Shown: positions 2,902 through 42,952 of the stretch, piece by piece
Numbering within the stretch: the first letter of the stretch is position 1
Layout of the letters: the number at the start of each line of letters is the position of its first letter
Source of the DNA: a virus
Strand: one strand, 5' to 3'
Virus genome (UHGV): UHGV-0192279
DNA length: 50,405 bases
The notes under the pieces: model-generated
Seen by the model: only the letters and a program-made list of their open reading frames with translations
Databases searched by the model: none
Told to the model about the DNA's origin: nothing
Translations under genes and position numbers: made by a program

Positions 2902-3284
2902 AACGCAGCGAAGTTTATGACGAAATAAGGGATTGGATTCAATCCCACGGATACGATGAAGGCTATATTTTACAAGCCCGTTTCTGGAATGAGCGAAGCA
3001 ATTCGAATAACGACAGATACATCGTGATCCAGCAAAACGGCGGCGCGGCTGGTGAAGAAGCAATAACCCGTGATTATTTCCGCATCCTGGTTATTTCGGC
3101 GCGTAATGATGCAAATATCAGTGAGGTGGAAGACCTGGCAGATGCCATCCGTCAAAGCATGTTAACAGAATATAAAACTGATAAAATTACACACATGAAG
3201 CCAGTTGGCGCTATTCCTGCAATGCAAACGAGAGAAGGGCGCTTTATTTTTACCGTAGCTTTTCAAACCATCATATCCAGATAA
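2898..3284 (+). CDS. tail terminator-like protein (128 aa)
   Basis: Overlapping start-stop (ATGA) with upstream gene; size and position just upstream of major tail gene. Confidence 0.3.
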   Translation: MKRSEVYDEIRDWIQSHGYDEGYILQARFWNERSNSNNDRYIVIQQNGGAAGEEAITRDYFRILVISARNDANISEVEDLADAIRQSMLTEYKTDKITHMKPVGAIPAMQTREGRFIFTVAFQTIISR

Positions 3285-3296
3285 GAGGTAATTAAC

Positions 3297-3773
3297 ATGT
3301 CTCAGACTTGCGAAAAAGGCGCGTTTTTAGGCCGTGACGTTGCTGTATTCTTCGCTATCGCTTGTCCAAATGCGAAGCCGGTAGCTAGCGATTATAAAGA
3401 GTTAGGCATGATGCGCGGAAAAACGCTTTCCGTCGAATGGGAAACCGCAGACGCCACCGCCGATAAATCAGCCGATTACACGAAGGAATCAATGGTTACT
3501 TACAAATCCGTTTCTTTCTCCGGCGACGGTGTATCCCGTACTGAGGGAATCCATAATCAGAAAGTGCTGAAACGCCACGTAATTACGCCAGACAAAACCA
3601 CTGGATCACAACCTTATGTATGGCTAAAGATCGTTTCTCCTGTAGACGTAACCGAAGGCCCATTCCTTTGCACTTCCTTTAAAGAAGAAGATCCGCACGA
3701 TGATGTTTCTACCTGGTCTATTGAGTGCGAAAGCGCTGGACAGGTAACGGTAGGCGATATCCCATCGGAATAA
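3297..3773 (+). CDS. major tail (tube) protein (158 aa)
   Basis: AAGAGG SD; position before chaperone and tape measure genes; followed by strong terminator. Confidence 0.5.
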   Translation: MSQTCEKGAFLGRDVAVFFAIACPNAKPVASDYKELGMMRGKTLSVEWETADATADKSADYTKESMVTYKSVSFSGDGVSRTEGIHNQKVLKRHVITPDKTTGSQPYVWLKIVSPVDVTEGPFLCTSFKEEDPHDDVSTWSIECESAGQVTVGDIPSE

Positions 3774-3791
3774 CAACTCAGATTAACAATC

Positions 3792-3815
3792 GGGGCCATT
3801 TGGCCCCTTTCTTTT
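3792..3815 (+). terminator. rho-independent terminator after major tail gene
   Basis: GGGGCC-attt-GGCCCC hairpin followed by TTTCTTTT. Confidence 0.65.
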
Positions 3816-3827
3816 AGGGTGATAACT

Positions 3828-4505
3828 ATGATTCATGTTCGGACCGGGCAATTTGCGGCGGTGGTAGACGGTAGGCGGTATGTGTTTAATCCCTGCTTCG
3901 CCGCGATGGCAAAAATAGGCAGTGACAGAGAACTGGTCGAATATTTTGCAACAATCCACGGCGGCAAATATCCATCACGCTTGCCAGCAGACCCAGACTT
4001 ACGCAATCGCATTCTGGCGCGGTGTTATGGTGAAATAGTGCAGACATCAATGCACATCCTGAAATGTTGCTCAGACGATGAAATAGGCCCGTTATTGGGC
4101 GAGTGTAGGTTTACTCCTTCGGGCAAGTTGCGACTAAAACCAGGCTTGATGCCTACTGACGACGTTATCACGCTGGCGCAGCATTGCGTGTACCACGGCT
4201 TAATCGGTGATGGGCCGGAAGAAGATGCCGGAGAAATCCCGGAAGGGGAATATAAGCCGACTTTTAACGTCCTTGAATTCGTCTATTCTGCCGTTGCTCA
4301 CCTGGGCTTGTCAGAATCGGAAGCATGGAATATGACAATGACCGGATATAGGGCCACTGTACGCGCTAAAACGCCGCCAGACGAAAGAAGCGAAAGAAGT
4401 AAGCCAAACGTTCACATAAATAAACGTGCTTATGACGAGCAAATGGAGGCCGCTAAAAAGGCGCTAAAAAGAATGGAAAATCGCAAGCAAGAAAAAGCCC
4501 GGTAG
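3828..4505 (+). CDS. tail assembly chaperone (G/GT position), 225 aa
   Basis: ATG at 3828 with AGGGTGA SD (track start 3819 is GTG); located between major tail and tape measure genes. Confidence 0.45.
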   Translation: MIHVRTGQFAAVVDGRRYVFNPCFAAMAKIGSDRELVEYFATIHGGKYPSRLPADPDLRNRILARCYGEIVQTSMHILKCCSDDEIGPLLGECRFTPSGKLRLKPGLMPTDDVITLAQHCVYHGLIGDGPEEDAGEIPEGEYKPTFNVLEFVYSAVAHLGLSESEAWNMTMTGYRATVRAKTPPDERSERSKPNVHINKRAYDEQMEAAKKALKRMENRKQEKAR

Positions 4506-8709: not shown

Positions 8710-8795
8710 TTGGCTATAATTCTTGTGTCGAATATCTCATTTTTCGCGTAGAAGTGCGTAAAGATATATACAAAATGTAACTTACAGGAGGGGGT

Positions 8796-9149
8796 ATGCC
8801 GGAAGTGTTCAGATGGACACCACAGAGAAGCTACAGCGTAAACAGTGAGCCTAACGTGTCCGTTATCAAGCTGGGCGATGGCTATGAACAGCGCCAGACA
8901 AAAGGGATTAATCCACTACTTGACAGCTATACGCTGGTCTTTAAAGGTACGAGCGCCGGATGCGGTGACGCCGGAAACGTGGCGCTCCAGGTTGACGCAT
9001 TTTTAAGAGCACGTTGCGCGGTCGAGGCGTTTTACTGGACGCCATCTACAGACGGAGTGAAAAGGCTTTTTGTATGCCGAAAGTGGAGCATGGCGAAAGA
9101 CGGCCCGGTATGCACTCTGAATGCAACGTTTGAACAAGTTATCAATTAA
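8796..9149 (+). CDS. M: minor tail protein M (117 aa)
   Basis: Clear similarity to lambda gpM pattern (FRW...GDGY.QR...WTP...KWS...FEQV.N); AGGAGGGGG SD. Confidence 0.85.
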   Translation: MPEVFRWTPQRSYSVNSEPNVSVIKLGDGYEQRQTKGINPLLDSYTLVFKGTSAGCGDAGNVALQVDAFLRARCAVEAFYWTPSTDGVKRLFVCRKWSMAKDGPVCTLNATFEQVIN

Positions 9150-9162
9150 TGGAGAAGTCAAT

Positions 9163-9348
9163 ATGTATGCTATTTGTGTAGTTGACCGCACGGGCGCTTT
9201 TACATTATTTGACGACTATGAAATCAAAGATCTTACCGTAAAGGATGACAATGGCGAGATCTGGTATCTTCATGACGTTGGTGACGGGTATGTTGGGTGC
9301 AGGTCGAGAGAGGGAAGGGGAGTTTTATTTTTGGTTGATAGGGTATAA
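9163..9348 (+). CDS. small protein between M and L (61 aa)
   Basis: ATG with GGAG SD; track ORF 9121 start is in-frame upstream and overlaps M. Confidence 0.35.
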   Translation: MYAICVVDRTGAFTLFDDYEIKDLTVKDDNGEIWYLHDVGDGYVGCRSREGRGVLFLVDRV

Positions 9349-9448
9349 ACACGACCCCGCGCGAAGCGGGGTTTATAGTGTCGATAGCAGAATGCATAAC
9401 AATCCAATAATGATAATAATCACCTCCAGAACGTAATGTTCGCACATC

Positions 9449-9697
9449 TCATAACGCCCCCTTCAAATATGTCAATCCCTTATCAGTGACGAATGAATGG
9501 TTTACCTGGTTTTCATCCGTCATGATGATGAATAACTTTTCCTGTAGGTATTTCGCTTTTGGGTACAGCGTTAAACAGACCTGGTACAAAACCCCGCGCT
9601 CAATCAGCAAATCAATAAATTCGTGCTCATGATAACCGATAAGGCGGGCGGCCTGTTTCAACGTGTACACATAGTCACCGTGATTGCGCCGCGTCAT
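9449..9697 (-). CDS. small HTH-like protein (82 aa)
   Basis: Helix-turn-helix-like segment YTLKQAARLIGYHEHEFIDLLIERGVL; last gene of three-gene antisense cassette. Confidence 0.4.
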   Translation of the reverse strand: MTRRNHGDYVYTLKQAARLIGYHEHEFIDLLIERGVLYQVCLTLYPKAKYLQEKLFIIMTDENQVNHSFVTDKGLTYLKGAL

Positions 9698-9706
9698 ATT
9701 GCCACC

Positions 9707-10033
9707 TTATTTGCCGAACGCTCCCAGGTTGTCGATACAGAAATCTTTTGCCGCTTTTTCGTATTCACGTTTTGCTTGCGGATCATCTGCCGGGAAACCT
9801 TTTACGTGTATTTCACTAGGACAAGCCTGATCCATAGAGTTGGCAAAATTAACATTGAAGTTAACATTAATATCTTTCGGGTTCATATCTTCCACCTTAT
9901 CCGCTATTTGTACTGGAATGATTTTAAATTCCCTGGCGCGTCCGAAGAATCGAACAAGTTTTTCACCTTCCTCGATCGCCATTTCGTGACTATCATACAA
10001 GCCGTAACCTTCCCAATCCTTACTTCCTGCCAT
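9707..10033 (-). CDS. hypothetical protein (108 aa)
   Basis: ORF in antisense cassette; no recognisable motif. Confidence 0.4.
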   Translation of the reverse strand: MAGSKDWEGYGLYDSHEMAIEEGEKLVRFFGRAREFKIIPVQIADKVEDMNPKDINVNFNVNFANSMDQACPSEIHVKGFPADDPQAKREYEKAAKDFCIDNLGAFGK

Positions 10034-12306: not shown

Positions 12307-15300
12307 ATGAGTAGCGGCGGCGGTGGTAAAGCAAAAACACCAACATTAATAAACGATAACCTTTATCACAAACAGTTTTATCGTGTACTCGATATTATTT
12401 CAGAAGGGCCGATTTATGGCCCTGTCAATACAAAAGCGCCATTAAATAGCGTGATGCTTAATGACACGCCTGTTACTGACGCAAACGGAAATACAAGCGT
12501 TCATGGTGTTAGTGTGGCGTGGCGTAACGGCACGTTAGATCAATCTCCGATTAACGGTTTTAACGGCATTGAATCAACCACTATTGTTAACGCTAAGGTA
12601 ACTCACGACACGCCAATAATCAGGACTGTTTCCGATCCTAACGTAAACCGCGTTCGCCTGAATATCGGCGTGGATTCGCTTGTGCAGTCTGACGAGCAAA
12701 GCAATCAACATAACACATCCGTAATGATGGCGATTGAAGTTAAACCATCCTCATTTTCGGCATGGTCGCTGGCTAAAAGCGTAACCATCGGCCCGGGTAA
12801 GCAGAGCGGCGAATATCTCGAATCTCATGTCATTAACGCTCCAAATGAAAGACCTTTCGATATTCGCGTTCGCCGTGTAACAGCCGATAGCACAAGCGAT
12901 CTATTGCAGAATGATACGAGATGGAGTAGTTACAGCGAAATAATCGACGATAATTTGTCTTATCCTCACACCGCTGTAGCTGGCGCGGTGATTGATCATG
13001 ATCAGTACGCTGACACGCCTACCCGCACTTATCACCTGCGCGGGCTGATTGTTGATGTTCCTGATAACTATAACCCGGAAACTCGCACTTATTCCGGTTT
13101 ATGGCTTGGCGGATTCAAACAGGCATACAGTAATAACCCCGCCTGGATATTCCGCTATCTGGTTAAAAACAGGCGTTTCGGCCTTGCCCGTCATGCTGGC
13201 TATATTGACGTTGACGACGGCGCATTATATACGCTTTCTCAATACTGCGATCAGCTGGTCGATGATGGTTATGGCGGCCTTGAGCCTCGCATGACGCTTA
13301 ATGCTTACATTACGGAGCAGATGAGCGCCCGCGACTTACTGGACAATATCGCCGGGATGTTCCGAGGCATCGCGTTATGGGACGGGCAACGCCTCACCGT
13401 GATGATTGATGCACCACAAGACCCGATCGCCACCATTACAAACGCAAACGTCGTTGACGGGGCGTTCACTCGATCGAGTATCTCCCGCGCGGAATGCTAC
13501 AACGCCGTGATTGTGTCCTGGACTGACCCGGAAAACGGCTGGGAGCAATCAAAAGAGTATGTAGCAGATGATGAGCTAATCGCCCGCGATGGTTACAACG
13601 AAACCACGATGGAGGCGTTCGGCTGTACGTCACGCGGGCAAGCGCACCGCGCGGGCAAATGGCTGATAGAAACAGCAAAACGCGAGCCGTCAAAATTCAC
13701 GTTTAAAATGGCGCGTGACGCAATTCACTTTACGCCAGGGGATATAATCGAGATCCTCGACAATAACCGCGCTGGCGCTCGCTTAGGCGGTCGCATCGTG
13801 GCGAACAATGGTAAAGTGATAACGGTAGATAAGGTCGATTCAGAATATATTGCGGCTGGCGACACTATAAGTCTTCTTGATAGCGATGGAAAATTTAAAA
13901 AACATCAGATCACTGGTGTTAACGGGAACAAAATCACACTGGCAGCGGCCCCGGCATGGATTCGGAACGGGACTGTTTTTGCTGTATCAACCGAAGCAGC
14001 AAAACCCGTTTTATGCAGGATCACCAGCGTAGCCGAAACTGAAAACAACAGCGTGTACACCATCGAGGCCGCGCAGCACGACCCGAACAAACAAGCGGTA
14101 GTCGATGAAGGCGCAATATTTGAAATCAACAACGACACGCTTAATCATTTCCGCGTTCCGAACATAGAAAACCTGAAAGTAATAAACATTGCGTCAGAGA
14201 CTGTTCAATGCCGCGCTACATGGGAAACACAGACAACTACGCATCGCATGACCTTCGAGATCCGCATATACAATGCAGATGGTGCGGTGGTTAAAAGCTA
14301 TGAAACCACGAAATATAGTTATGATTTTTATGGTATTGAAGCTGGCGTGTATTCTTTAGGCGTTCGCGGAAGAAATGATACTGGCATGAAGGGTGCAGAA
14401 AGTATCGTTGACCTTGTTATCGGTGCGCCAGCAGCACCGATCGGCGTTAATTGGGTTCCCGGCGTATTTCAGGCGACCGTGTACCCGATAAGCAAAACCA
14501 CACTTACTACCGATACGTCATACGAATTCTACTATGCAGGGGAAAACCAGATCACAGATCCGGCAAAAATAACCACGTCGGCACAGTTTACCGGGCGCGG
14601 TTATCAGTGGACTTTTGGCGGCATGAACACGGGCCACACTTATTACGTTTATGTTCGCACTCGTAATGCTTTTGGTGTGTCTGATTTCGTCGAGGCATCA
14701 GGTAAGCCAACAGAGGATTTTGACGAAATCACTGATTACGTTACAAAGGATGTAATGGAATCAGAGCAATTCAAAGAGATGATTAGCGATATTAAAGATC
14801 TTGGCGATCGCACTGATATTATAGAAAGTGCGACCAACGACCTTAAATCCGCTACTGACGACCTTAAGGCAGCCACCGACGACCTTAAAGCTGACACAGA
14901 TACACTTAAAAAAGACACCGAAGACCTTTATAAAAAAGTCGAAGAAAACGCCGATGGAATAGGCAAACATGAGGTAAGAATAGACTCATTAGAGGTATCA
15001 AACGAAAACGTTAACAACGAACTGGCACAGACAAAAGCAAGTTTACAAAACGCTTCGCTTGCTCTGATCAATAACTCGCTTGCTCAAACTAACACGCGGG
15101 TTACTCTTACCGCTCAATATAAGAAAGGTCGCAACGAAACGAAGGCACAGATTGACCGCATCGACAACGTTATCGCAGAGGAGAAAAAAGCGACAGCGGA
15201 ATCACTGGAAACCATCACAGCCGAAATAAATACGATGGACTCAAACATCAAAGGAGAAATAGCCCGAGTAGACAAAGCAATGGCAACCGAAACGCAGGCG

Positions 15301-16524
15301 AGAACGGAGGCTATAAGCAACGTTAACGCCAGTATCAGCAGCCTGGAAAACAAAACTGATGCGAGCGTTTCTCGTCTCGATAAAGCAATATCAGATGAAA
15401 TGCAGGCAAGAAGCGACGCAATAACAGAGGTTAAAGCTGATTTAACAACGCTTGAAAATAGCACAAATGCCAGTGTTAGCCGCCTGGATCAAGCTATCGC
15501 TGACGAATCAAGTGCGCGCGCTCAGGCAATATCAGGTATCAGTGCGGAGCTTGGTCTTGTTGAAAATGAGGTTGATAAAAACAGCGACGAAATAGATCAG
15601 GCGAAAGCAAGTCTGCAAAACGCCTCGATTGCACTTATCAACAACTCAATAGCGCAAAGTAAAATGAGCACTGTTATTGAGGCAAAATACAGGAAAGGCC
15701 AGACAAAAACAAAAGCAGAAATAGCAAGGGTCGACACAGCAATAGCGGACGAAACCCAGGCCCGCGCGGAAGCTATAGCATCACTTGAAGCCAATATTAA
15801 TGAAAATATTTCAGCAAAAATAACAGATATATCAACGGCGCTCGCTACTCACGAGGCATCAAGTGCTGAAAAATTTGTCCAAATATCGGCATCTTTCGAC
15901 GATGTAAACTCAAGCATCACTGAATGGTCGCAGGCCATGACAACGGCGGACGAGGCATTATCAACCAAAATTGATCAGCTGAAAGTGACCGTTAACGGGA
16001 ACACAACAGCGATCGAGACAACATCGAAAGCGTTAACCGATTTCAAAGGCAACGTTGATGCGTCATATTCAATCAAGCTCGCCACCGATAACAACGGCAT
16101 GAAATACGCTACAGGTATGTCGCTTGGATTGACTGGAGACGGGACTAACTTTCAGTCACAGTGTATTTTCCTTGTTGATCGCTTTGTGTTAATGACTGCC
16201 GCAAACGGTACATATCAAACGCCTTTCTACGTTCAAAATGGCTCTTGCTATATACGCGACGCATGGATCAAAGACGCAACAATCACAAGTGCTAAGATCG
16301 CACAGCAGATACAATCATCTAACTACGCGTCAGGATCCGCAGGGTGGATGATTAATAAAGATGGTAGAGCTGAATTTAACAACGTTACCGTGAGAGGTAG
16401 TGTTATTGTTCAAGGCGGCGGAACATTTAGCATGACGAGGAGCGACGGGCGCGTAATTCTTAATAATAACGGTGTTAGAGTTAATCTGCCGAATGGTGGC
16501 GTGATAATACTTGGATACTGGTAA
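12307..16524 (+). CDS. J: host-specificity/central tail fibre protein J (1405 aa)
   Basis: Colinear similarity to lambda gpJ across N-terminal 1000 aa (SEGPI.GPV, YHLRG..., FGCTSRGQAHRAGKWL...); C-terminal part contains coiled-coil repeats. Confidence 0.95.
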   Translation: MSSGGGGKAKTPTLINDNLYHKQFYRVLDIISEGPIYGPVNTKAPLNSVMLNDTPVTDANGNTSVHGVSVAWRNGTLDQSPINGFNGIESTTIVNAKVTHDTPIIRTVSDPNVNRVRLNIGVDSLVQSDEQSNQHNTSVMMAIEVKPSSFSAWSLAKSVTIGPGKQSGEYLESHVINAPNERPFDIRVRRVTADSTSDLLQNDTRWSSYSEIIDDNLSYPHTAVAGAVIDHDQYADTPTRTYHLRGLIVDVPDNYNPETRTYSGLWLGGFKQAYSNNPAWIFRYLVKNRRFGLARHAGYIDVDDGALYTLSQYCDQLVDDGYGGLEPRMTLNAYITEQMSARDLLDNIAGMFRGIALWDGQRLTVMIDAPQDPIATITNANVVDGAFTRSSISRAECYNAVIVSWTDPENGWEQSKEYVADDELIARDGYNETTMEAFGCTSRGQAHRAGKWLIETAKREPSKFTFKMARDAIHFTPGDIIEILDNNRAGARLGGRIVANNGKVITVDKVDSEYIAAGDTISLLDSDGKFKKHQITGVNGNKITLAAAPAWIRNGTVFAVSTEAAKPVLCRITSVAETENNSVYTIEAAQHDPNKQAVVDEGAIFEINNDTLNHFRVPNIENLKVINIASETVQCRATWETQTTTHRMTFEIRIYNADGAVVKSYETTKYSYDFYGIEAGVYSLGVRGRNDTGMKGAESIVDLVIGAPAAPIGVNWVPGVFQATVYPISKTTLTTDTSYEFYYAGENQITDPAKITTSAQFTGRGYQWTFGGMNTGHTYYVYVRTRNAFGVSDFVEASGKPTEDFDEITDYVTKDVMESEQFKEMISDIKDLGDRTDIIESATNDLKSATDDLKAATDDLKADTDTLKKDTEDLYKKVEENADGIGKHEVRIDSLEVSNENVNNELAQTKASLQNASLALINNSLAQTNTRVTLTAQYKKGRNETKAQIDRIDNVIAEEKKATAESLETITAEINTMDSNIKGEIARVDKAMATETQARTEAISNVNASISSLENKTDASVSRLDKAISDEMQARSDAITEVKADLTTLENSTNASVSRLDQAIADESSARAQAISGISAELGLVENEVDKNSDEIDQAKASLQNASIALINNSIAQSKMSTVIEAKYRKGQTKTKAEIARVDTAIADETQARAEAIASLEANINENISAKITDISTALATHEASSAEKFVQISASFDDVNSSITEWSQAMTTADEALSTKIDQLKVTVNGNTTAIETTSKALTDFKGNVDASYSIKLATDNNGMKYATGMSLGLTGDGTNFQSQCIFLVDRFVLMTAANGTYQTPFYVQNGSCYIRDAWIKDATITSAKIAQQIQSSNYASGSAGWMINKDGRAEFNNVTVRGSVIVQGGGTFSMTRSDGRVILNNNGVRVNLPNGGVIILGYW

Positions 16525-16556
16525 TAAAAAGCCCCTACATAGGGGCTTTATTTTTC
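16525..16556. terminator. bidirectional terminator between convergent J and antisense gene
   Basis: A5-AGCCCCT-acat-AGGGGCT-T3AT5; T-runs on both strands. Confidence 0.65.
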
Positions 16557-17517
16557 AATACATTGCTGGTAACAGCGGGTAATTAATGTTAGCGATAGCG
16601 TTTACATGCCTCCCATTTGTCCTTGCAACTATCAGACTCCCCCTGCTTGGTCTAATGTATCCACCTGATCTTATTGCGCCGTAATAGTAATAATAGTACA
16701 TATTTATGTTTTTCTCAGTTAACGCGCCGTATCTTGCTATAGGAACGAATGCATTGCCTATATATTGATTACCATTAGCCATGTTAAATGTACCACCAAA
16801 AACAAACGGCCTTTGTGCCGTTGAGAACACAACCTGACCGGATGCATTCCTCATTACCAATCCAGCATTGCCAGCAGCAGGAGTCTGCCTTCTAAATACA
16901 ACTAAATCCATGTTAACAGTTGCGTCAACGGTGATGTAATCACTCCCTAGCGCGACTCTTGTACACTTTATGGTGTTCCCTGATCTTTCAACAACAACAT
17001 TAGGATCATCCCATCTACCAAACGCCACCACAGTTCCAGACGGCAAATTATAAGTCCCAGTAAACGTAATGTTCCCAGCGTAAGTGCAACATAATAAATT
17101 AGAATTCGTTGTTATCGTAGTGAAATCAGTTGAATCTCTTATATATAAACCAGCTCCGCTATTGCTTGGGTATCCTATTTCAAAAAACAAACCGCTAACC
17201 AGTACGGTATCACCTTCCCATCCGGGCCCGTTTGCATAACCAAAATCTACCTTCCATTGAGTAGAGTTTAACTTAGTAACATTGCTGATCCAGCATACAT
17301 TAGTAGTTGGATAAACTTCTTTTATAGTTGCAGGCTTTAATGAAAAGAAAAAACCGTCACTACCACCAGGGAAGCAGGTTGGCATTGTGAATGTATAGCT
17401 TGTGGTTTCGGCGGGAATTGACCCAAACGATCCGCAATATGACGGCGCTCTTAATCCTGAAGTAATTTCCATCGCCGGACGGCCATCATTAAGATCTATG
17501 TATAAACCTTGCCCCAT
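16555..17517 (-). CDS. hypothetical beta-rich protein (320 aa), antisense between J and tail fibre
   Basis: GGGGGAA SD before ATG; Gly/Thr/Asn/Tyr-rich with YYYYYYG run; no signal peptide recognised. Confidence 0.5.
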   Translation of the reverse strand: MGQGLYIDLNDGRPAMEITSGLRAPSYCGSFGSIPAETTSYTFTMPTCFPGGSDGFFFSLKPATIKEVYPTTNVCWISNVTKLNSTQWKVDFGYANGPGWEGDTVLVSGLFFEIGYPSNSGAGLYIRDSTDFTTITTNSNLLCCTYAGNITFTGTYNLPSGTVVAFGRWDDPNVVVERSGNTIKCTRVALGSDYITVDATVNMDLVVFRRQTPAAGNAGLVMRNASGQVVFSTAQRPFVFGGTFNMANGNQYIGNAFVPIARYGALTEKNINMYYYYYYGAIRSGGYIRPSRGSLIVARTNGRHVNAIANINYPLLPAMY

Positions 17518-17585
17518 GATATTCCCCCAACATTTAATATCTTATAGAAATAATAATATGCATATTTTGTGTGAGCAAATACAGT

Positions 17586-17594
17586 TGGTATAAT
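17586..17594 (+). promoter_or_regulatory. extended -10 promoter element (TGgTATAAT) for tail fibre gene
   Basis: Perfect TGnTATAAT in divergent intergenic region; weak -35 (TTGTGT). Confidence 0.45.
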
Positions 17595-17624
17595 ATTATA
17601 ACTAATAACAAAGGAGTCATTGCG

Positions 17625-19388
17625 ATGATTTACACAACAGGCACGATAGCCGTTAGCGGAAAAACAGTTACCGGGACAGGGACTGAATTCAACGCCGCAT
17701 TATCTCTGATCAGGGTTGGTTGCACTCTTATTGCCATTAGCGATCCGGTGCAGATTTTTTCAATTACAGAGGTAAAAAGCGCAACAAGTTTATCAGTAAC
17801 CCCCTCGGCAAGTCCTGCTATTCCGGCTGGCACTAAATTTAGCATCCTGCTTTCAGACTCGATCTCTGTAGATGGTCTTGCTCAGGATGTCGCCGAAACA
17901 CTGCGTTACTATCAAGGCAAGGAATCAGAAATAGCTGACGCCGTCGAATTTTTCAGCGACAACAAAGATGTGATTTCAGCATCAAAATTAGCGTCACAAT
18001 CAGCTACCACTGCAACCAACGCTGCAACAACAGCGACAAGCGCCGCCGATTCAGCTAAGACATACAGAGACGAGGCCCGCGAATACGCCAATCAGACAGC
18101 GCAGCCTTACGCGTATGTTTTGCAGCCGCTGCCGGACGTATGGATACCGTTTAACGACTCTCTCGACATGATTACCGGGTTTTCCCCTTCCTATAAAAAG
18201 ATTGTTATTGGTGAAGAAGAAACAACAGTACCAGGTGACAAGATCGTTAAATTTAAACGCGCGTCAAAAGCAACTTATATAAACAAATCCGGTGTGTTTA
18301 AGGAAGCAGCCATTGACGAACCACGTTTTGAACGAGAAGGGCTGCTGGTTGAAGGGACCAGAACTAACTACATTATAAACGGTAACACTCCATCAAGCTG
18401 GGGGTGCTCGCCGTCAGTTACGACAACTGCAAACACGGATGCCTTCGGCTTCCTGTACGGTAAGTGCGTGATCGTGGCCGATGGTGTAGGAAAAAATACG
18501 GCGTTTAATATGGCTTCCGTAACTGCGGCTAACAGTCTTGATACGTCTGGTGACGAGAAATATGTAACGGCATCATGCCGATTCCGGTCCGACAAGGATG
18601 TACGTCTGCGCGTGCGTTTTGCAGAGGGTGCGGATCAGAGTAGTATGACTTTCTCCGGCGACGCATACATTAAACTTAGCGACTTGTCAGTGTCTAAAAC
18701 TGGTGGCGCTGCGAAACGTATCACGGTAGAAGTTGAGAGAGACGAGGTCACCGGATGGAATCGCGCGGTGGTGATGCTGCAATCCACCACGGCATTGGTT
18801 AACGCACAGTTCCAGATCTCGCCAGTGAGTAGTTATGCTGCCGGGGATTATATCGAACTAACCACACCGCAAGTTGAGCTAGGAATAGGGGCGTCCTCAT
18901 ATATCATCTCCGGCACATTACCGACAACGCGCGCCAGCGATATGGTCAATATCTTCGCAGAAAACAATCTATCATCCCTACCGTTCACATCACTGGTCGA
19001 GGTGCACGTAAACTGGGGTACGCCGCCAAACCAATCGCCTCGAATTTTTGATGTTGGAGGTAATAGGAGTAATGATAATTACTTATCGCTTGGATTTGTT
19101 AGCACGGGTGAGATTGCGGCTAACGTAGGAATGGTGCAACCGTTAATTCAGCCCGAAAGCCGTCACTTTATTGCTGGTGTTCGCGCGCAGCAGAATCTTT
19201 CGGTCGATGCCGTGTGCAACGGTAAATATACAACCAAACCAAGCGGCAATGTATTCGCAGTCAGTGCTACGTCAATCCGTTTTGGCGGGCAAGCCACGTC
19301 GGGGGTGCGACATCTTTTTGGACACATTAGAAATTTCAGGGTATGGCACAAAGCATTGACCGATGCGCAATTGAGCGAGATTGTTTAA
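17625..19388 (+). CDS. side tail fibre/receptor-binding protein (587 aa)
   Basis: AAGGAG SD 8 nt before ATG 17625 (track start 17571 lies upstream of the SD); C-terminal LFGHIRNFRVWHKALTDAQLSEI resembles ConA-like lectin domains seen in phage fibres. Confidence 0.6.
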   Translation: MIYTTGTIAVSGKTVTGTGTEFNAALSLIRVGCTLIAISDPVQIFSITEVKSATSLSVTPSASPAIPAGTKFSILLSDSISVDGLAQDVAETLRYYQGKESEIADAVEFFSDNKDVISASKLASQSATTATNAATTATSAADSAKTYRDEAREYANQTAQPYAYVLQPLPDVWIPFNDSLDMITGFSPSYKKIVIGEEETTVPGDKIVKFKRASKATYINKSGVFKEAAIDEPRFEREGLLVEGTRTNYIINGNTPSSWGCSPSVTTTANTDAFGFLYGKCVIVADGVGKNTAFNMASVTAANSLDTSGDEKYVTASCRFRSDKDVRLRVRFAEGADQSSMTFSGDAYIKLSDLSVSKTGGAAKRITVEVERDEVTGWNRAVVMLQSTTALVNAQFQISPVSSYAAGDYIELTTPQVELGIGASSYIISGTLPTTRASDMVNIFAENNLSSLPFTSLVEVHVNWGTPPNQSPRIFDVGGNRSNDNYLSLGFVSTGEIAANVGMVQPLIQPESRHFIAGVRAQQNLSVDAVCNGKYTTKPSGNVFAVSATSIRFGGQATSGVRHLFGHIRNFRVWHKALTDAQLSEIV

Positions 19389-19398
19389 GGTGGTGAAT

Positions 19399-19665
19399 AT
19401 GAAAGATGTTAGCTTGCAATTTACTGATAAACAGCAATACAACGATATTGTGATTAAGAGCGGCTGGCTGGACGCCAACTGGTCAACCGTATTTGTTGAT
19501 GAAATTGGTTTTGTGCCTGTATTCGATGATCCAGAAAGTGAGACACCTGTACTGATTGAGAAAAAGGGCTATTACGTCAACATGCGCATTACTGGCGACG
19601 ATGTTGATTTGTCGCCGCTGGAAAAATTCATCGTTCTAGATCCAGGCGTCCGCGCATGGGCTTGA
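19399..19665 (+). CDS. hypothetical protein downstream of tail fibre (88 aa)
   Basis: AAGGTGG SD; ATG at 19399. Confidence 0.4.
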   Translation: MKDVSLQFTDKQQYNDIVIKSGWLDANWSTVFVDEIGFVPVFDDPESETPVLIEKKGYYVNMRITGDDVDLSPLEKFIVLDPGVRAWA

Positions 19666-29687: not shown

Positions 29688-29939
29688 ATGACAGCTACAA
29701 CATTAAGCGAAAATAACTGTAGAGGTTTTCAGAGAACTGCGGAAAGCCTTGATGATAGTGATGTATTTGTTGATTTCGGCGGCGGCAACTATGAATTCGA
29801 AACGTCTGCGGGCTGGAGTGATAAATGGCCTTTCCCTACTCGACAGGAATTAAGCGATCGTAAATCATTTGGCGAAGATGCCGAACGCCTGGCGAATAAT
29901 AAATGGCTGGATAAATTTATTGCGGAGGCTGAAAAATGA
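29688..29939 (+). CDS. hypothetical protein (83 aa)
   Basis: ATG at 29688 with GAGGAG SD (track ORF 29460 extends upstream in same frame across previous gene). Confidence 0.4.
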   Translation: MTATTLSENNCRGFQRTAESLDDSDVFVDFGGGNYEFETSAGWSDKWPFPTRQELSDRKSFGEDAERLANNKWLDKFIAEAEK

Positions 29940-42002: not shown

Positions 42003-42494
42003 ATGATTAGCCAATCGCTGAAGAACAAGATTATTGCTGCGGCGGCTGGTGGGGCGATCTCTATTGCGGCTGTGATGGTTAAATCATTAGAAGGCGTGGA
42101 GTACGATCCGTATCGTGATGTTATCGGTGTATGGACTGTATGTTATGGTCATACCGGAAAAGACATCATGCTTGGTAAGACTTACACGCAATCAGAATGC
42201 GATGCTTTGTTAAATAAAGATCTCCACAAAACCGCAAAAGCGATCGACCCCTATATTAAAGTCGAAATATCAGATTTTACCCGCGCGGCGCTTTATTCAT
42301 TCGCCTATAACGTAGGCGCTACCAACTTTAAAACATCAACATTATTGAAGCTACTCAATGACGGCAAGAAATCGGAAGCGTGCGCACAGCTTAAACGCTG
42401 GATCTATGCTGGTGGTAAGCAGTGGCAAGGGTTAATTAACCGTCGTGATATTGAATATGCCGTTTGCGAATGGGGTGAAACATGGACAAGGTAA
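42003..42494 (+). CDS. SAR endolysin, lysozyme GH24 family (163 aa)
   Basis: N-terminal signal-anchor-release segment [17 protein letters not shown] followed by E-x8-D-x5-T catalytic motif ([23 protein letters not shown]) as in phage 21 R. Confidence 0.9.
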
Positions 42495-42952
42495 AGGCGT
42501 TAGTTATTGCCGTTGTTGTTTGCATTATTGCCGGACTAACTGCCGTTACATGTTATTACCAGGGTGAGGCGGCAAGGTTACAGGAAGAAGTCACGGTGAC
42601 GCAAGGCGCACTAAAAACAGCAAGTAACACTATTCAGCAGATGAAGGAGCGAAACGCAGAGCTATCAAAACTTGATAAGAGGTATCACGATGAAATTAAA
42701 GCTATCAGATCTGACATTGCCGATCTTCGCGCTGGCATTGATAGCGGCGCTATCAGGTTGCACGTCAACGCCGAGCCAGTGCGATTGCTCGACAATACCG
42801 GAACCGCCAGCCGCATTGATGGAGCCACCTGTAGACTCACTGCCGACGCTGAATCGGCTTATCTATCCCTCAGAGAACAACTAAAAGAGAAAGACGCGAA
42901 GATCACCGGATTGCAGGACTACATCAAAACGCAGTGCTTACGCAAAAAATAA
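42482..42952 (+). CDS. i-spanin (Rz-like), 156 aa
   Basis: N-terminal TM helix then coiled-coil periplasmic domain; overlaps endolysin end. Confidence 0.7.
42690..42884 (+). CDS. o-spanin (Rz1-like lipoprotein) embedded in +1 frame of i-spanin (64 aa)
   Basis: ATG 42690 with AAGAGG SD; lipobox LSGC after signal peptide; Pro-rich mature part. Confidence 0.6.
   Translation: MKLKLSDLTLPIFALALIAALSGCTSTPSQCDCSTIPEPPAALMEPPVDSLPTLNRLIYPSENN

Follow-up and report, generated by a model that had tools for sequence, protein, structure and literature searches.

What does a single antisense gene contribute when it lies between the J gene and the side tail fibre gene of a temperate phage? We addressed this question for the UHGV virus genome UHGV-0192279, of which the whole analysed stretch of 50,405 nucleotides is referred to here as the window. 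A sequence-only reading of this DNA had placed a 320-residue gene on the minus strand at 16555-17517 and left its product unrecognized, proposing either a receptor-masking or exclusion factor or a fibre-related protein expressed separately. The open reading frame (ORF) has exactly these coordinates, with an ATG start on the minus strand and 320 encoded amino acids. The second proposal was essentially right: the product is very likely a separately encoded receptor-binding protein (RBP) of the central fibre, that is, the receptor-binding tip of the J fibre with a gene of its own. It is a divergent member of the known DUF6453/Rtp44 family and not a new kind of gene. The best explanation overall, to which we assign a probability of roughly 0.8, is a monomeric adhesin docked on the tip of J, with LptD as the probable terminal receptor.

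The antisense gene encodes a DUF6453 family protein with an adhesin fold

The gene and its most conserved segment are located as follows.

16555..17517, minus strand: RBP gene (320 amino acids; DUF6453/Rtp44-like, LptD-type RBP family), assigned from the ORF, Pfam, a Protein Data Bank (PDB) match, and an AlphaFold2 model searched with Foldseek.

17434..17517, minus strand: codons 1-28 of the RBP gene (MGQGLYIDLNDGRPAMEITSGLRAPSYC), the segment of highest conservation in the family, from a 48-sequence alignment.

The product matched Pfam family PF20051 (DUF6453) over residues 4-297 of 320 (E-value 8.6e-79; 265.3 bits against a cut-off of 25) and phrog_1265 with an E-value of 5.4e-70. Only one protein was matched among PDB sequences, chain C of entries 9RPT, 9RPW and 9RQI (E-value 3e-43, residues 1-296). 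The description of the product as unrecognized was therefore overtaken by both family matches and by a solved homolog. Chain C of 9RPT is the RBP of the Dhillonvirus phage Oekolampad (Bas18_0025), determined by cryo-electron microscopy in complex with LptDE (PMC12685063). The match to NCBIfam was weak and meaningless.

An AlphaFold2 model of the RBP, built from the 48-sequence alignment, was all-beta and confident (mean predicted local distance difference test score (pLDDT) 89.2; predicted template modelling score 0.88), in agreement with the earlier description of the gene as beta-rich. When this model was compared with PDB structures using Foldseek, chain C of 9RPT was the sole significant fold match (E-value 3.7e-17), with a template modelling (TM) score of 0.83 normalized to the 254 modelled residues of the target and 0.67 normalized to the query; the next PDB match had an E-value of 0.08. 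In the BFVD database, the same fold was found at 14-21% identity in uncharacterized proteins of phage ECBP2 and Pectobacterium phage My1, and the adhesin fold therefore extends past the Pfam family. The composition reported from sequence was also confirmed: the protein is rich in Gly (11.2%), Thr (9.7%), Asn (7.8%), and Tyr (6.6%), and residues 274-279 form a run of six tyrosines followed by glycine.

The window RBP shares with the Oekolampad RBP and Rtp44 its Pfam family, its fold (TM score 0.83), a length of about 320 amino acids, a conserved N-terminus, and a C-terminal LPxMY motif, and all family-invariant residues are present. Sequence identity is low: 34% globally to the Oekolampad RBP (35% by tblastn over residues 1-296) and about 34-35% to Rtp44 (33.6% over residues 1-320), with the window RBP on a long branch of its own. 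Rtp44 is in turn 96% identical to the RBP of Bas01 (PMC12685063). A 2026 preprint sets the bounds of the LptD RBP family at an identity above 30% with coverage exceeding 99% (bioRxiv 10.64898/2026.04.02.716166); the window RBP lies above 30% identity to members with a validated receptor, by a small margin.

J ends in the tail type that accompanies DUF6453 proteins

If the product is a central-fibre RBP, the J protein is its expected partner. The relevant features are the following.

12307..16524, plus strand: J, central tail fibre/tip protein, 1405 amino acids, assigned from Pfam and phrog_31.

16402..16521, plus strand: last 40 amino acids of J (...GSVIVQGGGTFSMTRSDGRVILNNNGVRVNLPNGGVIILGYW), the tail type found with DUF6453 RBPs, from tail searches and alignment.

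J contains the Pfam domains FNIII-A_GpJ, Phage-tail_3, Ig_J, Ig_J_second, and Phage_Tail_Tip. The protein ends 37 amino acids past the last of these (the Pfam match extends to residue 1368), and a fused receptor-binding domain is absent. The short C-terminal tail contains the pattern found in cognate J proteins, ...VTVRG...NG(I/V)xVNLPxGGxxxxGxW. With the last 50 amino acids of J as query, we retrieved 235 phage records, including Oekolampad, Rtp, OzMSK, Bas83, and mEp515, and their taxonomic spread was nearly that of the 333 records with a DUF6453 homolog. For the J proteins of phi80, N15, SRT8, and Sponge, the match to the window J stops at the tip domain.

We compared nine loci chosen by a match to the last 40 amino acids of J with five control loci that have the tip domain and another tail. 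A DUF6453 gene lay directly after J in 9/9 of the tail-matched loci and was absent from 5/5 controls (MagusPhagus, phi80, N15, SRT8, and Sponge), which carry gp22-gp23-Cor or a longer J instead. In a further 92 RBP-bearing loci, taken from 12 bacterial genomes (GTDB) and 80 IMG/VR contigs, a J with the cognate tail adjoined the RBP gene in all but one (91/92). Covariation of the J C-terminus with RBP type has been reported (bioRxiv 10.64898/2026.04.02.716166, Fig. S12).

These data suggest that the C-terminal tail of J is the docking site for the N-terminal segment of the RBP (residues 1-28), which has a mean conservation of 0.59 in the 48-sequence alignment versus 0.29-0.46 elsewhere in the protein. 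In the free Oekolampad RBP, as seen by cryo-electron microscopy, the tail-proximal part is disordered when off the phage (PMC12685063). Database matches restricted to the N-terminal ~50 amino acids were considered as modular adaptor swaps and rejected, as they proved to be frameshifted or truncated fragments.

In the mechanism that we propose, the RBP would be made apart from J as an all-beta protein of about 35 kDa, monomeric by analogy with the solved homolog and with a fold so far found in phage adhesins only. Its conserved N-terminus would be held non-covalently by the J trimer's short C-terminal tail at the tip of the phage tail, and its distal end would grip an outer-membrane protein of the host, leading to irreversible adsorption and DNA ejection. 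The neighbouring side fibre would serve for the initial, reversible binding of surface glycans. If the receptor is LptD, as homology makes most likely, the adhesin would insert into the LptDE lipopolysaccharide translocon and plug its lumen, in the manner of the Oekolampad RBP. A comparable arrangement is known for T5 pb5 (oad), a separately encoded monomeric adhesin at the tip of the central fibre that has a cognate periplasmic exclusion lipoprotein, Llp (PMC12685063). T5 pb5 works alike in binding an outer-membrane protein, but its receptor is FhuA and it is an analog rather than a relative, with no detectable similarity in sequence or fold: it was not among the Foldseek PDB matches to the window RBP at E-values ≤ 0.001.

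The RBP slot after J is shared by temperate and virulent phages

The window is the genome of a temperate phage and encodes a repressor, a Q-like antiterminator, Erf, NinB, and a DnaB-like helicase, and its tail genes are 84-87% identical at the nucleotide level to MagusPhagus and the mEp021 group. The mEpimmI group to which mEp021 belongs is made up of non-lambdoid coliphages from human faeces that depend on Nus (PMC11893012). In mEp021 and mEp515, J is followed by an antisense small lipoprotein gene and a DUF6453 gene, and then by the side fibre gene; mEp021 gp80 and mEp515 gp107 thus occupy the same antisense slot, in the same phage group, as the window RBP. Relative to mEp021, the tail genes are 84% identical in nucleotides, the J tails are 62% identical, and the Shine-Dalgarno and intergenic sequences are partly alignable, whereas the RBPs are only 36% identical. 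DUF6453 proteins in temperate mEpimmI phages had been annotated but not interpreted.

The same module is found after the J homolog in the virulent phages Oekolampad, Rtp, and ACG-M12. In Oekolampad and Rtp, small virulent siphoviruses unlike the temperate window phage, the RBP gene is likewise antisense right after gpJ and beside the lateral fibre gene, with the same J-tail type. Loci downstream of gpJ have been described as 'bona fide RBP loci' in Drexlerviridae, Dhillonvirus, and Queuovirinae, and their alleles match the terminal receptor (FhuA, BtuB, YncD, LptD, and others) without exception, the Rtp44 type corresponding to LptD (Maffei et al., PMC8594841). Four unrelated RBP families are now known at this locus (bioRxiv 10.64898/2026.04.02.716166). 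Among the 92 further loci that we collected, the RBP gene is on the same strand as J in 72. In Klebsiella Webervirus phages and one Enterobacter Ravinvirus it comes straight after J, and a Citrobacter prophage has its start codon overlapping the J stop codon, which marks it there as a late structural gene.

Alternative occupants of the slot are gp22-gp23-Cor, as in phi80, N15, and T1-like phages of the FhuA type, and the fused C-terminal receptor-binding domain of lambda J, which is of the LamB type. These proteins are unrelated to the window RBP and go with a different J-tail type. E. coli prophages related to the window hold the gp22-gp23-Cor or the fused-domain type. Three prophages by zntB/ynaN in E. 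coli FAH, PAR, and M15 (loci L019, L020, and L021) share the end of J and the side fibre with the window; their slots contain either a lone small antisense ORF, nothing, or gp22-gp23-cor plus IS903B, and the side fibre is the final gene block ahead of host zntB.

Two further records deserve mention. The mEp021 homolog gp80 is labelled 'virion structural protein' in a record whose labels appear to follow the proteins identified by mass spectrometry: gp41 has the label too and lies upstream of the lysis genes, the place where two structural proteins separate from the main cluster were detected by mass spectrometry according to the mEp021 paper (PMC11893012). The label gives indirect support to a place for the RBP in the virion. 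A 46.7-kb contig assigned to 'Nitratidesulfovibrio liaohensis' (NODE_2, NZ_VSMK01000220.1; locus L025) carries a T1-like J, a lipoprotein gene, and a DUF6453 locus with 37% identity to the query. This phage-sized contig is probably a contaminating enterobacterial phage and not part of the genome of the sulfate reducer.

The window lacks the exclusion lipoprotein of antisense loci

Superinfection exclusion in the DUF6453 module is the task of a separate small lipoprotein, Rtp45 or Lpp021 (PMC12685063, PMC11893012), and the structure of Rtp45 has been determined with the protein on the periplasmic face of LptD (PMC12685063). Oekolampad and Rtp carry such a cistron upstream of the RBP gene, and mEp021 carries the PF24052 lipoprotein Lpp021 (gp81). 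In the window, no PF24052 (Rtp45-like) lipoprotein was found by two lipobox scans or by tblastn with four PF24052 lipoproteins, and the lone lipobox ORF was an Rz1-like spanin. The latter is part of a nested pair, in which a 64-amino acid lipoprotein ORF (42690-42884, lipobox LSGC) lies in another frame of a 156-amino acid ORF (42482-42952), an arrangement like that of Rz/Rz1. A match to phi80 Cor at 29740-29847 (E-value 0.006) was rejected, as there is no suitable ORF there.

Among antisense RBP loci other than the window, a PF24052 cistron was present just upstream of the RBP gene in 18/18, and among same-strand loci it was absent in 72/72. Within the mEpimmI group, 8/48 members are without the lipoprotein (PMC11893012). 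In an alignment with mEp021, the Shine-Dalgarno sequence and start codon of the window RBP gene fall on those of the lipoprotein cistron. From this alignment, we infer that the window locus may derive from an ancestral two-gene operon that lost its lipoprotein cistron.

The window allele is isolated but intact

Searching proteins with a word-indexed method gave 10 clusters of homologs, and an exhaustive search gave 62 clusters at E-values ≤ 0.001, so the DUF6453-like family is small. Apart from one cluster at 98% identity, the best identity to the window RBP was at most 40%, both in a set of 5.8 billion proteins and among 1.8 billion cluster representatives. A nucleotide search of phages with the 1.5-kb locus returned zero matches because the allele is too divergent. 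Complete E. coli genomes contained the flanks in 23 prophages beside zntB and the window RBP allele in none. Eleven metagenome contigs from several samples encode an identical RBP in the same context, with the ORF intact and full-length; the gene is therefore real and comes from a circulating phage.

The 98% allele (contig L022, 201-1163) differs from the window RBP gene at nine codons, one synonymous and eight non-synonymous (E37G, V163M, V188I, D193N, I195V, N270K, Y274H, and H304D), compared with 15 synonymous and 15 non-synonymous differences in the adjoining J (Fisher p = 0.056). Three of the replacements, N270K, Y274H, and H304D, fall in or beside the loop aligned to the one that carries the contact residue Gln299 in the Oekolampad RBP. 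The 8:1 excess is only a hint of diversifying selection on the RBP. The two alleles also differ by one G in the Shine-Dalgarno sequence (GGGGG in the window and GGGGGG in L022).

LptD is the favoured receptor

All DUF6453-type RBPs with a determined receptor map to LptD (PMC8594841; bioRxiv 10.64898/2026.04.02.716166). The two validated LptD binders share only 31% identity, and the window RBP is as near to either of them (34% to the Oekolampad RBP and 35% to Rtp44). On these grounds, we name LptD as the receptor of the window RBP with moderate confidence.

Several observations weigh against the reading of the product as a functional, LptD-binding adhesin. The window is the only antisense locus found without a cognate exclusion lipoprotein. 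In a neighbor-joining tree, the window RBP is a long branch, sister to and outside the clade with both validated LptD lineages. The Gln299-type LptD-contact loop is not conserved in the window RBP, although it also differs between the Oekolampad RBP and Rtp44; Gln299 is the one LptD-contact residue named in the main text of the Oekolampad paper, and the only one that we mapped. T5 pb5, which binds FhuA, has BtuB-binding homologs at about 30% identity (bioRxiv 10.64898/2026.04.02.716166), so that an identity of ~30-35% does not guarantee the same receptor. A promoter scan upstream of the RBP gene found nothing above threshold, and the 8:1 substitution ratio statistically fits relaxed constraint as well. 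Lastly, mEp021 and mEp515, the closest phages with a homologous RBP, are OmpA-dependent as published, and the mEp021 authors assigned receptor binding to J and OmpA, with gp80 not discussed (PMC11893012).

The most serious alternative is that the protein is a central-fibre RBP whose divergence has taken it from E. coli LptD to a different receptor, either some other outer-membrane protein, for example OmpA, or the LptD of another host. Such a change would explain why an LptD-specific lipoprotein is no longer kept at this sole antisense locus without one. It would also suit the long branch and an identity of no more than 40% to any other member, the divergent distal loops, the published OmpA dependence of mEp021 and mEp515, the receptor switches of T5-like RBPs at ~30% identity, and the allele's occurrence in zero complete E. 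coli genomes. Against this, the DUF6453-type RBPs with determined receptors are uniform, the validated binders are as distant from one another as from the window RBP, the 72 same-strand loci are without the lipoprotein too, and the tail genes of the window share 84-87% nucleotide identity with their counterparts in E. coli phages. We consider a different receptor possible but unlikely. The narrower proposal, that the long-branch RBP switched from E. coli LptD to another outer-membrane receptor and that the loss of the lipoprotein is the footprint of this switch, we regard as somewhat more doubtful still.

The published receptor assignment of the mEp phages may itself be incomplete. mEp021 gp80 is 64% identical to Rtp44, and the mEp021 lipoprotein is 49% identical to Rtp45 (mEp021 gp80 and gp81 lie at 8742-9895 of locus L003, and the mEp515 counterpart at 2994-4228 of locus L014). 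LptD is essential and missing from the Keio set used in the mEp021/mEp515 study, and we therefore think that it could not be tested there. Judging from these sequence relationships, the terminal receptor of mEp021 and mEp515 is probably LptD, blocked by Lpp021. OmpA may be needed in addition, in the way that Bas01 needs NupG (bioRxiv 10.64898/2026.04.02.716166).

The signals of the gene and other explanations

The expression signals of the RBP gene are as follows.

17523..17528, minus strand: Shine-Dalgarno sequence GGGGGA, with the ATG 5 nucleotides downstream, read from the sequence.

16528..16549, both strands considered: hairpin terminator AAAGCCCCTACATAGGGGCTTT between the convergent J and RBP genes, by scan on the plus strand and by eye on the minus strand.

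17550..17578, minus strand: weak candidate promoter TTGCTC-17 nucleotides-TATTAT (8/12), by eye only and of low confidence.

The Shine-Dalgarno sequence is present, as had been noted. The gene had also been credited with its own bidirectional terminator. The hairpin lies between the convergent stops of J (16524) and the RBP gene (16555), and the terminator scan reported it for the plus strand alone, with a 9-bp stem with five GC pairs and a T-run on that strand. On the minus strand, we recognized by eye a shorter GCCCC/GGGGC stem followed by TTTTTATT. A bidirectional role is reasonable, with the minus side read by eye, and the antisense gene shares the hairpin with J. The candidate promoter overlaps a block that is partly conserved with mEp021. 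The GC content is 41% over the RBP gene and the first part of the side fibre gene (window 16500-18000), against 45-53% for J and the remainder of the fibre gene, which is consistent with a horizontally exchanged module.

In phage lambda, the gene between J and stf is lom, which lysogens express as an exported beta-barrel of the outer membrane. The window gene could on this model be a lysogenic conversion moron, expressed from the prophage to mask the receptor or exclude other phages. An orientation antisense to the late operon with its own Shine-Dalgarno sequence and terminator, a GC content below that of neighbouring genes, and the PHROGs category of the family ('moron ... membrane protein') all fit such a role. 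The sequence gives no backing to this label or to that of 'membrane protein' in RefSeq: as had been noted for the signal peptide, the RBP has no signal peptide, lipobox, or transmembrane or hydrophobic segment (maximum Kyte-Doolittle mean over 19 residues, 0.92), and hence no route to the envelope. Only position is alike in lom and the window gene, and Pfam Ail_Lom did not match the window RBP at an E-value ≤ 1. In addition, the homolog is a virion adhesin solved on the outer face of its receptor LptD, exclusion in the module is done by a different protein that is absent here, and in most relatives the gene abuts J and runs in the same direction. Antisense orientation is the rule in strictly virulent T1-like phages, which form no lysogens. 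The proposed masking or exclusion role is thus highly improbable.

It is equally improbable that the gene encodes a chaperone for tail fibre assembly or is what remains of a decaying RBP-lipoprotein operon, without a role in infection any longer, since the lost lipoprotein partner, the lack of a strong promoter, and the non-synonymous excess, all of which it would accommodate, are opposed by a full-length ORF identical on 11 contigs that retains every family-invariant residue, by a confidently folded model, by a J that has no alternative receptor-binding domain and would leave the phage with no terminal adhesin, and by the lack of any match to Tfa or chaperone families in Pfam, PHROG, or NCBIfam. 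The homology found is to the adhesin itself and not to a tail fibre assembly protein, and the position of the gene is unlike that of Tfa, being upstream of and divergent from the side fibre gene.

Neighbouring genes

The gene on the other side of the RBP gene is the following.

17625..19388, plus strand: gene for the side (lateral) tail fibre, oriented divergently from the RBP gene, assigned from phrog_1419 (tail protein) and the NF048003 spike fibre domain.

The start of the side fibre gene is most likely the ATG at 17625 and not the GTG at 17571 given in the ORF list: the ATG is preceded by the Shine-Dalgarno sequence AAAGGAG, is conserved in mEp021, and is the start chosen by gene callers, giving 587 amino acids. 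The gap to the RBP gene is ~107 nucleotides. The product also has a weak Laminin_G_3 match of 26.1 bits, just under the cut-off of 27.6. Upstream of the gene, we noted by eye an extended -10 motif, TGGTATAAT, at 17586-17594 on the plus strand, which the promoter scan did not list. A 94-amino acid ORF at 19381-19665 (phrog_1361, function unassigned) overlaps the side fibre gene at its end and is kept after the same fibre in E. coli prophages; it may encode a fibre accessory protein.

Within J, residues ~830-1230 (window ~14800-16000) form long coiled-coil-like imperfect repeats, such as ...SVSRLD(K/Q)AI(S/A)DE..., and the length of the repeat region differs between the window and contig L022. 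Repeat length also varies among mEpimmI phages (PMC11893012).

Implications for the mEpimmI phages and the DUF6453 family

The antisense gene now has a concrete assignment, as a likely determinant of the host range of the phage. While the finding is in itself ordinary, it indicates that the exchangeable RBP locus after gpJ, known from virulent T1-like phages, Dhillonvirus, and Queuovirinae, is also found in the temperate, gut-prevalent mEpimmI group. In this group, the slot can hold a DUF6453 RBP with or without the lipoprotein, the phi80-type gp22-gp23-Cor, or a J with a fused binding domain. The data further suggest that the published receptor assignment for mEp021 and mEp515 (J and OmpA) is incomplete. 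If the window RBP is a divergent LptD binder without an exclusion partner, it would be a useful additional data point for efforts, considered in the LptD papers, to make use of LptD as a phage target. The finding would gain in interest if the RBP binds something other than LptD; a receptor switch, if true, would be the first non-LptD specificity for the DUF6453 RBP fold.

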